64,000 nucleotides of DNA from Candidatus Moraniibacteriota bacterium (GCA_963743885.1 CAVURJ010000002.1:109020-173019); one strand, 5' to 3'. Shown: positions 58,454 to 61,383, counted from the stretch's first letter. Program-made: numbers and translations. Notes: a model not told the origin generated them from the sequence alone.

Positions 58454-59785
58454 TTTAATGTAATTCATGCCACCTACGTTTTTTACGAGCCCCTTTATTT
58501 CAAGCATCGAGAGTATCGAACTCACGGCTGCAGTTTCCAGTGTAGCTGCCTGGATTATCTTGTCAACGTGGATCGGTTCGTGCGAGAGGCAGCGGAGCAC
58601 TCTTTGTTCTTCCGGAGAGAGGCCGGCGGAGGCTCCTGTAATCGCTGTATCATCAGATTGTGTCGCTGGTATGAGAGCGGGGAATTCTTCCAGAATATCA
58701 CTGACGGATGTCACGATCTTTGCGCCTTCCCGGATGAGCCGGTTGGTGCCGGTCGAGACGGGGGAGAAGATGGATCCTGGTATGGCAAATACCTCCCGAT
58801 TATAATCGAGAGCGAGTCGGGCCGTGATGAGGCTGCCGCTCTCTTCGGCGGCTTCGATGACGACCACGCCGAGGCTCATGCCGGCGATGATGCGGTTGCG
58901 CATCGGGAAGGTGTAGGTATTCGCCGGAGTACCGGGAGGGTATTCGGAGACGAGTGCGCCATGTCCGGCGATCCTTTTGGCAAGCGCGACATTGTTCCTC
59001 GGGTAGAGTGAGGCGTCATCGAGGCCGTTGCCCATGACGGCGATGGTCTCCATGCCGGCTTCAAGCGCGGCTTCGTGTGCCAGGGCGTCGATGCCGTAGG
59101 CGAGGCCAGAGACGACGACGCAGCCGGAGCGGGCGAGATCCTCACCGAGCCGGTAGGCGGCCCGTTCCCCATAGTTCGTGTATTTGCGCGAGCCAACGAT
59201 AGCGATGAGTGGCCTCGGTCGGGACCAATCGTAAGTGCCGCGGGCATAGAGTATATAAGGACTATCCAGAGCCTCTCGGAGTAGCTCTGGGTACGATGGA
59301 TCCGATTTCGAGAGCAGGATTATGCTGTGCGTTTGGAAGCGCTTCCATTCCTGATCAGGATTGATAGAGCACCTTCCTTTGAGGAGGAGGTCTTTAGTCT
59401 TCTGGGAGAGGTCGGCCGAGAAAAGGATGTCGTTCTCCGGGGCGTTCCAGACTGTTTCGCCGCTGCCGAATATCCCGACCAGAGTTTCCAAGCGGTCATT
59501 TCCGGGCTTGAGGATCAGGTTGAGAGCGTGAAGATATTTCCTGTCCATGAGGGTATCTTTTTCTTCTACTATAGATGAGACGAGGATAAAAAGCACGTCA
59601 CAGTAGACAAAGATGTTGTTTTTCGTTATGATAGGTATTGTTTTTAAAGAAGTCGTTTCCGCCAGAGGCGGACGAGTGTAGATTTGGGCCGTTAGCCCCT
59701 CACTTGGAATCAGTAAAAACGCAGATGTACTACGTCTACGTGCTGAAAAGCAAAAAGGATGCCAGTCTGTATATTGGCTACACAA
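58448..59785 (-). CDS. dprA: DNA processing protein DprA (Smf)
   Basis: 'IAIVGSRKYTNYGERAAYRLGEDLARSGCVVVSGLAYGIDALAHEAAL...AVMGNGLD' Rossmann-like DprA core plus a C-terminal wHTH. It is long for DprA, so the true start is probably internal. Confidence 0.8.
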   Translation of the reverse strand: MCSQYTDWHPFCFSARRRSTSAFLLIPSEGLTAQIYTRPPLAETTSLKTIPIITKNNIFVYCDVLFILVSSIVEEKDTLMDRKYLHALNLILKPGNDRLETLVGIFGSGETVWNAPENDILFSADLSQKTKDLLLKGRCSINPDQEWKRFQTHSIILLSKSDPSYPELLREALDSPYILYARGTYDWSRPRPLIAIVGSRKYTNYGERAAYRLGEDLARSGCVVVSGLAYGIDALAHEAALEAGMETIAVMGNGLDDASLYPRNNVALAKRIAGHGALVSEYPPGTPANTYTFPMRNRIIAGMSLGVVVIEAAEESGSLITARLALDYNREVFAIPGSIFSPVSTGTNRLIREGAKIVTSVSDILEEFPALIPATQSDDTAITGASAGLSPEEQRVLRCLSHEPIHVDKIIQAATLETAAVSSILSMLEIKGLVKNVGGMNYIKQ

Positions 59786-59988
59786 GCAATCTGAAAAGGC
59801 GTTTTGAAGAGCATAATTCAGAAAAGAATATCTCTACAAAGCACAAAGCTCCTTTTGAGATTGTTTATTACGAAGCGTATCGATCCATGGCTGATGCGAA
59901 GGATCGTGAGAAGAAACTTAAACGTTTTTCTGGCGCTTCGATACATCTCAAAAAGCGGATCAGTGGTAGTCTGACTGATTCCAAGTGA
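59725..59988 (+). CDS. GIY-YIG nuclease-domain small protein (UPF0213/YhbQ-like) immediately upstream of tRNA-Ala
   Basis: 'MYYVYVLKSKKDASLYIGYTSNLKRRFEEHN' is the GIY-YIG motif. The start is the internal ATG (the track start at 59638 has no support). The stop abuts the tRNA. Confidence 0.65.
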   Translation: MYYVYVLKSKKDASLYIGYTSNLKRRFEEHNSEKNISTKHKAPFEIVYYEAYRSMADAKDREKKLKRFSGASIHLKKRISGSLTDSK

Positions 59989-59989
59989 G

Positions 59990-60065
59990 GGGCCGTTAGC
60001 TCATCTGGTAGAGCACCGCATTTGCAATGCGGGGGTGGCAGGTTCGAGTCCTGTACGGTCCACCC
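59990..60065 (+). tRNA. tRNA-Ala (anticodon TGC)
   Basis: Acceptor GGGCCGT/ACGGTCC (one G-U pair), anticodon loop TTTGCAA, T-arm GCAGG-TTCGAGT-CCTGT. Confidence 0.8.
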
Positions 60066-60192
60066 TGTTAGAGAAAAATGACGCTCGCTTCATGCGGGCG
60101 ATTTTTTTTGAGAATGATACTTCGGGGGTATCCGTTGCGCTGCCAAGGGGTTGCTGTATAATGGCAGCAAGGGGTAATCCTTCTTTTTTCCT

Positions 60193-60813
60193 ATGAAGAA
60201 TCTTTTTTTTCCGCTGTTTATCCTTGCGGCCGTTGTCATGTTTGCGCCGTCGCTCGCTGATGCTCAAATTCCCGGAGGGGGGACGATTACGATCACTAAG
60301 AGTAATCCAATCGCTTTCGGTACTGTGGAGGACGTGGTGGATAGTATTCTCGGGACGATTAGGAAAATCATCGTTATCCTCTCGCTTGTCTTTATCGTTT
60401 TGGGAGCTATATTTTATATCGTTTCCGGTGGAGATGAGGGGAGGATCAAGTTGGCTAAGGGAGCGATTACTGCGTCTGTCATCGGTCTCGCGATAGGTAT
60501 CGCTGCCCCGTCTTTTCTCAAGGAGATTGGTGGCATCATCGGTTGGGGTAGTGCTGATTCTAGTGCCGTTGCGGGGGCTCTTACGATTTCGCAGATCGCT
60601 TCTAATGCACTTGATTTCCTCCTTTCTATTTTTGGTGTGCTTGCTATTATCATGCTGGTAGTGGGAGGGATAGCGTATCTTTCTTCAGCTGGGGACGAGG
60701 ATCGTATTGATACTGCCAAGAAGATTGTCAAATGGGCGATTATTGGTATCGTAGTCGCCTTTTCGGCCATGGTCATTGTTGACCAGATTGCCTCGCTGCT
60801 TTTGGGGGTGTAG
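60193..60813 (+). CDS. Tandem-duplicated pilin-like membrane protein (signal peptide plus two copies of the helix-'Y(I/L)xS(G/A)GDE(G/D)RI..AK'-helix module)
   Basis: The two internal repeats (about aa 60-120 and 130-200) each resemble ORF 48073-48492. Confidence 0.45.
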   Translation: MKNLFFPLFILAAVVMFAPSLADAQIPGGGTITITKSNPIAFGTVEDVVDSILGTIRKIIVILSLVFIVLGAIFYIVSGGDEGRIKLAKGAITASVIGLAIGIAAPSFLKEIGGIIGWGSADSSAVAGALTISQIASNALDFLLSIFGVLAIIMLVVGGIAYLSSAGDEDRIDTAKKIVKWAIIGIVVAFSAMVIVDQIASLLLGV

Positions 60814-61075
60814 GCTTCAAGGTTTTTCTGGTGCTCTTGAGTTTTTTTTGTCTTTGTGATACCATCAGGAATGTCGTTTTTCCTGAAAAGAGGGGATATT
60901 TCTGGTGATGAGTTCCCTCCAAAGGCGGGCGGGCAGGTGGTTCAGTGGACGAATGGCCGAGAACGAGAGAAAAATGTTCTGGAAAACGAGTGATCAATGG
61001 GTGATTAGCTCAGGTGGTTACCCGCCCGAACGTACCGTTCGGTACGGGCGGGGAGCGCGACGCGCTTGGGAAGAT

Positions 61076-61315
61076 ATGATATACGTTGTTTATGTTTTGC
61101 GTAGCGAAGACGGTCGTCTGTATAAGGGGATGACAAATGATTTGAGTCGTCGAGTCGCAGAACATAGACGAGGTAAGACTCGCACTACGAGGTTGATGAA
61201 GGATGTGCGAGTAGTCTATACTGAGAATTACCAATCCGAAGAAGAGGCATATCTCCGCGAGCAGTATCTGAAGACTGCTGCAGGTAGGCGGTTTCTTAAG
61301 AAACAACTCGGGTGA
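61076..61315 (+). CDS. GIY-YIG nuclease-domain small protein immediately upstream of (overlapping 6 nt of) tRNA-Ile
   Basis: 'MIYVVYVLRSEDGRLYKGMTNDLSRRVAEH' is the GIY-YIG motif. The track start at 60905 is probably too far upstream. Confidence 0.65.
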   Translation: MIYVVYVLRSEDGRLYKGMTNDLSRRVAEHRRGKTRTTRLMKDVRVVYTENYQSEEEAYLREQYLKTAAGRRFLKKQLG

Positions 61316-61383
61316 TTAGCTCAGGTGGTTAGAGCGCGACACTGATAATGTCGAGGTCCATGGTTCGAGTCCATGATCACCCA
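61310..61383 (+). tRNA. tRNA-Ile (anticodon GAT)
   Basis: Acceptor GGGTGAT/ATCACCC, anticodon loop CTGATAA, T-arm GGTCC...TTCGAGT. Confidence 0.85.

Follow-up and report, generated by a model that had tools for sequence, protein, structure and literature searches.

Small GIY-YIG nuclease genes at the 5' ends of tRNA genes in a Candidatus Moraniibacteriota bacterium: probable members of a family of 0.3-kb selfish cassettes

In a 64,000-nucleotide (nt) stretch of DNA from a Candidatus Moraniibacteriota bacterium (GCA_963743885.1 CAVURJ010000002.1:109020-173019; the whole stretch is hereafter called the window), two small open reading frames (ORFs), ORF1 and ORF2, run into the 5' ends of a tRNA-Ala and a tRNA-Ile gene, and a second copy of the beginning of the same tRNA gene lies upstream of each. 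Both ORFs are predicted to encode GIY-YIG nucleases. How does a nuclease gene come to stand between a broken and an intact tRNA start? A preliminary description of the window proposed a selfish cassette that inserts into a tRNA gene and regenerates its 5' part. All evidence presented here is comparative, and it supports this proposal: ORF1 and ORF2 are probably members of a large family of selfish cassettes of about 0.3 kb that occurs in the candidate phyla radiation (CPR, or Patescibacteria), invades the starts of tRNA genes and rebuilds the displaced piece. The 3' end of each cassette has a copy of the displaced tRNA 5' segment, so that an intact tRNA follows the stop codon and a dead fragment is left upstream. 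The tRNA-Ala locus is laid out as follows.

59604..59632, + strand: promoter-like site of tRNA-Ala, TAGACA-17-TATGAT (consensus scan only)
59658..59672, + strand: hairpin TCCGCCAGAGGCGGA in the tRNA-Ala leader, a variant of a shared motif discussed below, outside the ORF1 cassette
59686..59696, + strand: dead 5' fragment, an exact copy of tRNA-Ala positions 1-11 (59990-60000), missing from the empty sites of the relatives L081 and L086
59695..59714, + strand: left arm of a perfect 20-nt inverted repeat, GCCCCTCACTTGGAATCAGT (repeat search)
59725-59988, + strand: ORF1, 87 aa, predicted stand-alone GIY-YIG nuclease (UPF0213/Slx1-like; profile and structure search)
59974..59993, + strand: right arm of the inverted repeat, comprising the last codons, the stop, position -1 and tRNA-Ala positions 1-4
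59990..60064, + strand: intact tRNA-Ala(tgc) (ARAGORN, Rfam), identical to the empty-site allele of L081
60082..60100, + strand: terminator-like hairpin and T-run 3' of tRNA-Ala, the sole terminator-like call on the + strand of the scanned region

The main elements of this layout had been recognised in the preliminary description. The two ORFs are paralogous (41% identity) and match the GIY-YIG profile PF01541 with 63.3 bits (ORF1) and 45.8 bits (ORF2), the curated cutoff being 22.6; a gap of 1 nt separates the ORF1 stop from the start of tRNA-Ala, and the 3' end of ORF2 overlaps tRNA-Ile by 6 nt. The copies of the tRNA 5' ends also lie where it had placed them, and the longest tRNA-prefix match in control windows is at most 10 nt. 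What it had missed is the inverted repeat (59695-59714/59974-59993) that brackets ORF1. The promoter-like block at 59604..59632 lies 5' of the dead fragment and is conserved in the relatives L081, L083 and L086, whether the cassette is present or absent; ORF1 thus sits between a conserved tRNA promoter block and tRNA-Ala. The consensus scan found no promoter-like site belonging to ORF1 itself, the sole site being the one 5' of the dead fragment. Because ORF1 has no such site of its own and the sole terminator follows tRNA-Ala, it is reasonable to propose that the ORF is probably read through from the promoter of the host RNA gene and that the tRNA is then released by RNase P. The leader hairpin at 59658..59672 has a diverged counterpart in L081, which has no ORF1.

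A comparison with the tRNA loci of relatives that lack the ORFs, as the preliminary description had suggested, is possible in three syntenic genomes: L081 (DprA 83% identical), L083 and L086 (DprA 70%). The gene order DprA, tRNA-Ala, pilin, tRNA-Ile, Met, Met, Asp is common to these three and the window, and the synteny extends further downstream in L081 (including a sigma-factor gene) and L083. In L081 and L086, a pristine tRNA-Ala stands directly 3' of the promoter block, with neither ORF1 nor the 11-nt fragment. A three-way alignment at tRNA-Ile finds L086 pristine, L081 with a 96-nt ORF-less insertion after position 12, which opens with a CCCTCCAGAGGCGGGC hairpin and is not accompanied by ORF2, and the window with the L081-type insertion and a further 311 nt after position 22, composed of a palindrome, positions 23-31, ORF2 and positions 1-22. 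Since the ORFs are missing from these loci of L081 and L086, the window has insertions of 304 nt and 311 nt. As aligned, the cassettes are insertions, and the events at tRNA-Ile are nested. The live tRNA-Ala and tRNA-Ile of the window are identical to the L081 alleles, and presence/absence polymorphism at one locus, as expected of a homing gene, is found at both tRNAs between the window and L081/L086. The closest DprA relative, L085 (90% identity), is uninformative on the site, its contig being short and rearranged upstream. A further insert, of about 350 nt, separates the tRNA-Ala promoter block from dprA in L083 (3640-4000) and L085 (1-195) but is missing from the window, L081 and L086.

The tRNA-Ile locus, and an ORF-less locus at tRNA-Leu that belongs with it, contain the following features.

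60904..60914, + strand: oldest dead tRNA-Ile fragment, GGTGATGAGTT (positions 2-12 at 9/11; exact in L081)
60915..60930, + strand: mini-hairpin motif CCCTCCAAAGGCGGGC at tRNA position 12/13 of the old copy
60999..61020, + strand: second dead copy, tRNA-Ile positions 1-22, equal to 61310-61331 and orthologous to the start of the live tRNA-Ile of L081
61021..61052, + strand: 32-nt CCC...GGG palindrome that interrupts the dead copy cleanly between positions 22 and 23; also in L083
61053..61061, + strand: dead copy continued, GAGCGCGAC, tRNA-Ile positions 23-31
61076-61315, + strand: ORF2, 79 aa, predicted GIY-YIG nuclease of the 'LKT-xxGR' (classic UPF0213) subtype, with no long bracketing repeat
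61310..61384, + strand: intact tRNA-Ile(gat) (ARAGORN, Rfam), identical to the L081 allele and overlapping the ORF2 stop codon
36087..36115, + strand: ORF-less locus, G and tRNA-Leu positions 1-12 (36087-36099), then the mini-hairpin motif (36100-36115)
36176..36260, + strand: intact tRNA-Leu(cag)

At these loci, three details of the preliminary description change. The 32-nt palindrome that it had given a UUCG loop is present at 61021-61052, but its centre falls between two T's, so that there is no in-register C(UUCG)G tetraloop. The ORF-less 5' fragment at tRNA-Leu is real, but lies at 36087-36099 and not, as had been stated, about 7 nt away at 36094-36107; its sequence, GGCCCTGGTGGCG, equals 36175-36187. 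The motif CCKCCARAGGCGGRC, said to be shared between loci, does occur exactly three times in the 64 kb (36101, 59659 and 60916, against 0.03 expected for a pattern built from the same sites), but at the Ile locus it adjoins the older, degenerate fragment GGTGATGAGTT and not the copy at 60999. The tRNA sequence resumes beyond the mini-hairpins, positions 13-21 of tRNA-Ile at 60934-60942 and GAATT (positions 13-17) of tRNA-Leu 3 nt 3' of the hairpin. The CCCTCCAAAGGCGGGC motif is thus a mini-hairpin at position 12/13 of older, ORF-less tRNA fragments, and, because L081 already has a hairpin-led insertion without ORF2, the shared motif is, on this alignment, a mark of older ORF-less events and not of the two ORF cassettes. 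The spacers that follow the mini-hairpins were also considered as whole decayed tRNA copies; global alignments tested by shuffling gave no significance for either spacer, that of Leu or the older one of Ile, and therefore only the colinear pieces 1-12/hairpin/13-21 (Ile) and 1-12/hairpin/13-17 (Leu) are claimed. A genome-wide family of CCC...GGG hairpins resembling repetitive extragenic palindromes (REP) was rejected, as a scan of the window found no dispersed family outside tRNA loci; CC...GG hairpins elsewhere in the window number two, at 52707 and 56002, and are unrelated.

Further repeats surround these tRNAs. A hairpin 3' of tRNA-Ile (61388-61404, CCGTACCTTCGGTACGG) has TTCGGTACGG in common with the palindrome core at 61026-61046, and in L083 the palindrome of the dead Ile copy flanks the tRNA-Ile on both sides. 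Around tRNA-Met (61556-61630), a 31-nt inverted repeat (61505-61535/61638-61668, 84% complementary) may be a precursor-processing stem or a further bracket with a tRNA as cargo.

A tRNA gene of which part has been duplicated recalls the integrative elements moved by integrases, which classically leave such a duplication, and it might be asked whether the loci are remnants of these or of group I introns in tRNAs. Like the cassettes, integrase-type elements bring a replacement copy of the displaced tRNA part and leave a partial repeat at the far end. However, their attachment site lies in the tRNA 3' end, they encode an integrase and they span several kb or more, whereas the cassettes duplicate the 5' end, have no integrase and measure 0.3 kb. 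No integrase is found nearby, the neighbours being DprA, pilin and a sigma factor. As for introns, the tRNAs are uninterrupted, and an Rfam search of 59500-62100 (E up to 1) returned tRNAs only and no Intron_gpI. Such an origin is extremely improbable.

Is the arrangement peculiar to this window? A scan of one genome per species identified at least 565 loci encoding relatives, of which 80 were fetched, and 80 JGI metagenome loci served as an independent set. Many contigs are metagenome-assembled bins; because the arrangement recurs across NCBI, JGI and Logan assemblies, an assembly artefact can be argued against. An ORF was counted as linked when a tRNA or transfer-messenger RNA (tmRNA) on the same strand starts within -20 to +60 nt of its stop. 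Linkage was found for 26 of the 82 GIY-YIG ORFs and for 11 of the 588 other mechanical ORFs of the same loci (odds ratio 24, p 1e-17), so that a random distribution of GIY-YIG genes, which the preliminary description had named as evidence to the contrary, is not what is seen. The gap between stop and tRNA is exactly 1 nt in 10 loci, including ORF1. The preliminary description had also suggested a search for further pairs of partial tRNA and GIY-YIG ORF; in the 80 other genomes, 16 of the 32 tRNA- or tmRNA-linked ORFs have an exact tRNA-matching copy of at least 10 nt upstream of the ATG; nearly all such copies begin with tRNA position 1, and those of ORF1-like loci are 14-28 nt away from the ATG. 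Prefix copies are seen, in unrelated genomes, at Ala, Val, Ile, Pro, His and Cys tRNAs and, in variant form, at Trp and Ser. The JGI loci give the same picture of linkage and prefix copies. Several diverged copies may occur at different tRNAs of one genome (two within 1.4 kb here; L013; L019 with L024). All tRNA-linked cassettes are co-oriented with the host RNA gene except that of L076. The mirror architecture was also looked for, and no 3' tRNA fragment was found after ORFs that lie downstream of a tRNA.

The upstream fragments might simply be ordinary tRNA pseudogenes or slippage duplications that are unrelated to the ORFs and adjoin them by coincidence, and fragments without an ORF do exist at the window tRNA-Leu, at the L081 tRNA-Ile and in L003, L007, L024 and L071. 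However, among all 108 tRNAs, a prefix copy is present at 24, and in 17 of these, counting ORF2, a GIY-YIG ORF intervenes between copy and tRNA, the remaining 7 being ORF-less. Almost every copy begins with tRNA position 1, and with a single exception the same kind of C-rich arm or hairpin follows immediately 3' of it; the insertions, measured against the empty sites, are exactly one cassette long; and coincidental adjacency does not agree with the enrichment given above. An unrelated origin of the fragments is therefore very improbable.

Two observations made in the survey concern multiplication and host range. In L005 (1820-2500), tandem cassettes are identical over at least 304 nt, each after an 11-nt tRNA-Ala prefix, and in L024 (1-320) the fragment is immediately preceded by the terminal part of a further right arm. 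Such tandems would result from a second invasion of the rebuilt site or else from unequal crossing-over. Relatives also occur in bins labelled Omnitrophota, Scalindua, Brocadiales, Ratteibacteria and Bdellovibrionales (L034, L059, L061, L011, L041, L043). These fit either mis-binning or horizontal transfer out of the CPR, GIY-YIG genes being listed among those transferred out of Patescibacteria (PMC12455944).

Two cassette architectures can be distinguished, and they go with two protein subtypes, ORF1-like and ORF2-like. In the ORF1 type, tRNA positions 1-11 are followed by a left arm, CCCC(C/T)CAC with 8-13 variable nt, then by the ATG, the ORF, a right arm and the tRNA. The right arm consists of the last codons and the stop and ends in GTG(A/G)GGGG; its terminal G-run gives the first tRNA nucleotides and, together with the short direct repeat, rebuilds tRNA positions 1-11. 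An inverted repeat with conserved ends brackets 58/83 and 50/75 of the ORFs in the two sets. The ORF2 type (Ile in the window, His in L045, Cys and Lys in L080, Trp in L049, Cys in L079) has no long bracket and a longer dead copy, which extends to tRNA position 31-67 and is interrupted at positions 11/12, 22-24 or 36/37 by CCC...GGG mini-hairpins; the duplication measures 22-67 nt, and the mini-hairpin lies exactly at the break point of the dead copy. The cassettes fall inside the first 11-31 nt of the tRNA gene, co-oriented with it and 3' of the conserved promoter block. As for the mini-hairpins at break points, they may represent scars of repair, the footprints left by collapsed brackets, relatives that are not autonomous, or stabilisers of the mRNA 5' end.

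Degraded and ORF-less forms also occur. In L080 (3350-3760), a second GIY-YIG gene, degraded by a premature stop or frameshift, lies 5' of a live tRNA-Lys and is preceded by tRNA-Lys 1-24 and the hairpin TCCGCCAGCCGGCGGA, which resembles the window motif at 59658-59672. In L003 and L007 (about 3256-3295), the GIY-YIG ORF and the tRNA are separated by a perfect palindrome without an ORF, CCCCTCTGCTCGCGAGCAGAGGGG, on whose flanks the tRNA-Ala 1-11 repeat is found; this palindrome may have arisen by collapse of a bracket or as a miniature derivative.

Bracketed cassettes are also found outside tRNA genes, which qualifies any tRNA-only reading. They occur at the 5' end of tmRNA (L023) and of RNase P RNA (L069 by Rfam; L014 and L029 by the start GAGGAAAGTCCG), and within 16S (L022, L038) and 23S rRNA (L036, L037), where they are closed by the terminal-repeat stem in an rRNA helix; in L076, one lies on the opposite strand at the tRNA-His 3' end, and others adjoin the start codons of protein genes. 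The window itself contains a related unit in its 23S gene:

28688..28812, + strand: ORF-less 125-nt insertion near the 3' end of the 23S gene, bracketed by CCCCTCACTTGATTTGCGT and ACGCAAATCAAGTGAGGGG, with the same 11-nt termini as the ORF1 arms

This 23S gene (24315-28909) is 4595 nt long against a 2925-nt model, about 1.67 kb being insertions, and two group-I-intron-like matches within it (26874-27177 and 28339-28484) fall under the Rfam gathering score.

Relatives inside rRNA helices, where an insertion is tolerated if it forms a stem, invite the question of whether the repeats act in RNA rather than in DNA. The elements would then resemble intervening sequences: repeats and mini-hairpins would be transcript stems for processing or stabilisation, cut for instance by RNase III, that render insertions into stable-RNA operons harmless; the ORF would be a passenger, and spread would occur by transformation and recombination with the tRNA as homology anchor. 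Indeed, GIY-YIG ORFs are on record in non-intron insertions of CPR rRNA, where RNase III-type intervening sequences were noted and the ORFs were judged sparse and 'outside the context of homing' (PMC11270868), and the Coxiella 23S intervening sequence is a stem-closed, ORF-bearing selfish element excised by RNase III (PMC4990558). With these the cassettes share a small ORF within a terminal-repeat stem, a location in stable-RNA helices and, probably, co-transcription with the host RNA. Co-orientation with the host RNA gene at tRNAs, L076 apart, bracketed units that hold a tRNA in place of the ORF (L083, L070) and the adjacent genes for DprA and competence-type pilins are in keeping with such a mode of life.

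The arms themselves, however, argue for DNA. From one locus to another, their inner sequence changes but still pairs: of roughly 1900 pairs, about 98.7% are Watson-Crick. The mismatches comprise 11 G-U against 6 A-C, so that G-U is not markedly in excess, although such numbers do not allow a firm conclusion. An RNA stem maintained over long periods would be expected to accept wobble pairs; pairing kept without such tolerance suggests, within the limits of these small mismatch numbers, a constraint at the DNA level, unlike that expected of intervening sequences excised by RNase III. Moreover, the right arm holds the stop codon, so that an RNase III cut would truncate the mRNA; the ORFs are under purifying selection with catalytic residues intact; and conserved arm termini, together with a transposed copy in L098 (below), resemble the ends of a DNA element. 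We therefore regard an RNA-level explanation as rather unlikely, and return to cassettes that act as DNA.

The transposed copy belongs to a cassette (about 90% DNA identity) that three metagenomes, L095, L097 and L108, have at tRNA-Ala and L098 at an intergenic site; the ratio of nonsynonymous to synonymous substitution rates (dN/dS) among its copies is about 0.1. In L098, it occupies an unrelated site, is bounded exactly by CCCC...GGGG and has TTTGA as a direct repeat on its two sides. At other sites, such repeats often measure 4-5 nt (TTGA, TTTA, TAAA, ATAA), and at tRNAs apparently 7-11 nt; a target-site duplication of fixed length was rejected, as the overall range is 0-9 nt. With insertion sequences (IS), miniature inverted-repeat transposable elements and REP-RAYT systems, the cassettes have in common terminal inverted repeats with conserved ends, short flanking repeats (TTGA, TTTA, TTTGA, CGTTA), autonomous and palindrome-only forms, and the same element at unrelated sites (L095, L098). 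Unlike IS, they show no fixed duplication, and the inner part of the arms may change in sequence provided that it still pairs; the GIY-YIG gene is the sole ORF of each cassette, and no transposase of the DDE, HUH, serine or tyrosine class was found in them. Known autonomous insertion sequences are, to our knowledge, well above the cassette size of about 300 bp.

What kind of protein would such a cassette depend on? Residues Y5, Y16, G18, R26, H30, E50 and E62 are invariant across 27 sequences, and the ORFs are under purifying selection (dN/dS 0.10-0.25). An AlphaFold model of a cassette protein (predicted local distance difference test score 90) has the canonical beta-beta-alpha-beta-alpha fold, with strands at residues 2-9, 15-20 and 44-52 and helices at 23-31 and 55-67 that reach nearly to the C-terminus. 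The catalytic-domain match and the modelled elements cover almost the entire 79-90 aa, and no separate DNA-binding or recognition domain, such as homing endonucleases possess, is apparent in the profile match or the model. Foldseek matches UPF0213 best, then Slx1, a structure-specific nuclease for branched DNA, with the catalytic domains of I-TevI and UvrC lower. Profile comparison with the PDB gives 1zg2 (E 1e-13) and 1ywl (E 4.9e-11) over residues 2-73; these are BH0048 and EF2693, UPF0213/YhbQ-like proteins, a group of single-domain proteins of about 80-110 aa to which the cassette proteins conform. NCBIfam yielded UvrC and intron-endonuclease matches only, all sub-threshold. A defence-system gene was rejected, PADLOC giving only weak partial matches (E 6.5e-4 or worse over about 30 residues), as was a phage gene, with no PHROGs match.

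Purifying selection on a small UPF0213 protein also admits a host function, for example in the repair or maintenance of highly transcribed stable-RNA genes; the gene would then be retained in tRNA operons so as to be co-expressed, and local rearrangement would have produced the fragments and hairpins as by-products. The dN/dS values of 0.1-0.25, the wide occurrence of single-domain UPF0213 proteins of unknown role and the apparent co-transcription of the ORFs from tRNA promoters would suit this. However, close syntenic relatives live without cassettes, one genome may hold several diverged copies at different tRNAs, copies may be degraded (L080) or in tandem (L005), and the insertion sites are very heterogeneous. 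A host role thus appears improbable.

For the selfish cassette, which we favour, the following course may be envisaged. The nuclease would nick or cut at or near the target or the repeat structure, and host repair would then copy the cassette from an occupied locus, in a homing-like manner, via short homologies. Copying of this kind would explain the variable lengths of the direct repeats and fits the missing transposase. The inverted repeat would have its effect in the DNA itself, where it would form a stem or cruciform for a structure-specific nuclease to recognise. As far as sequences can tell, the comparisons demonstrate that the cassettes were inserted, that the 5' end of the tRNA is regenerated, that the cassette ends are conserved and that the ORF is under purifying selection; a role of the nuclease in driving mobility is what we infer from them.

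Several points weigh against this reading. GIY-YIG enzymes hydrolyse DNA and are not known to carry out strand transfer. The regenerated tRNA is identical in sequence to the target, so that a simple sequence-specific homing nuclease would be expected to cut occupied loci again; no mechanism of immunity can be discerned, disruption of the site included, as the regenerated tRNA equals the empty allele. The 7 ORF-less prefix copies imply that duplication needs no intact ORF in cis, about two thirds of the homologous ORFs are not adjacent to a tRNA, and the lack of a fixed target-site duplication belongs here as well. The loci were, in addition, retrieved by one N-terminal peptide pattern, which under-samples ORF2-like proteins. 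Finally, the bracketed cargo in L083 and L070 is a whole tRNA gene in place of the nuclease; from the ORF-less copies and these tRNA-cargo units it follows that other machinery could move the units. In L083 (3290-3560, - strand), an insert bracketed by CCCCGCACTAAATTTT and AAAATTTGGTGCGGGG interrupts the resident tRNA-Ala behind its anticodon loop; the cargo of this insert is a complete, different tRNA-Ala allele (that of L086), and the mini-hairpin CCCTGCCTGCCGGCAGGG lies in the T loop of the resident 3' half; this looks like a tRNA gene replaced by a mobile unit. In L070 (3268-3500), the two parts of an old tRNA (acceptor GGGCGCG...CGCGCCC) enclose a new, bracketed tRNA-Asp; the T loop of the old gene contains a mini-hairpin, and a GIY-YIG cassette adjoins the arrangement on its upstream side.

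A bolder version is possible, although less than probable: at about 300 bp, the bracketed unit would then be the smallest autonomous transposable element known in bacteria and represent a new class, its sole enzyme being a bare GIY-YIG nuclease and its movement depending on cutting and host repair instead of a transposase. The nuclease would recognise the stem or cruciform of its own repeat and G-run targets such as tRNA acceptor ends; the CCC...GGG mini-palindromes would be its non-autonomous derivatives or footprints, and repeated killing and replacement of resident copies would bring about tRNA turnover and horizontal replacement in CPR genomes (L083, L070).

Among known systems, free-standing GIY-YIG homing genes are similar in being selfish nuclease genes outside introns with presence/absence polymorphism. 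Phage T4 has in SegB a GIY-YIG homing enzyme whose gene lies among clustered tRNA genes (PMC2330249), and in fungal mitochondria some free-standing GIY-YIG genes overlap or split atp9 or are duplicated with its N-terminus (PMC7487136); the cassettes share with the former the association with tRNA genes and with the latter a partial duplication of the host gene of which one functional copy is kept. Unlike Seg proteins and I-TevI, the cassette proteins are bare catalytic domains of 79-90 aa without a DNA-binding domain to confer specificity, and in fold and profile they are nearer to UPF0213/Slx1 than to I-TevI. The cassettes also differ from free-standing homing genes in their near-perfect bracketing inverted repeats or mini-hairpins and in a regenerated target that equals the uncut one, and their hosts are cellular CPR genomes rather than phages and organelles. 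The literature on rRNA insertions is silent on tRNA, tmRNA and RNase P RNA targets, regeneration of the 5' segment, conserved arm termini and ORF-less derivatives. A full-text literature search likewise found no description of targeting of tRNA, tmRNA or RNase P RNA 5' ends, of regeneration, of a conserved bracket or of ORF-less derivatives. GIY-YIG ORFs in CPR rRNA insertions are thus known, and no prior description of the tRNA-targeting architecture was found.

CPR genomes are very small, yet they appear to tolerate hundreds of these cassettes, with more than 550 matches, a lower bound, in each of two collections. The cassettes explain the tRNA-like fragments and GC-rich hairpins 5' of CPR tRNA genes, the small 'GIY-YIG family protein' genes that abut or overlap tRNA, tmRNA and RNase P RNA annotations, and part of the non-intron insertions in CPR rRNA. 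The split and replaced tRNA genes of L083 and L070 suggest a route by which tRNA genes are replaced horizontally. As a tool, a compact nuclease recognising DNA structure or G-run junctions may also be of interest. If it is true that the nuclease mobilises a 300-bp unit, the cassette would be a minimal self-propagating DNA element and would provide a new route by which a nuclease-only gene spreads without an intron or a transposase.

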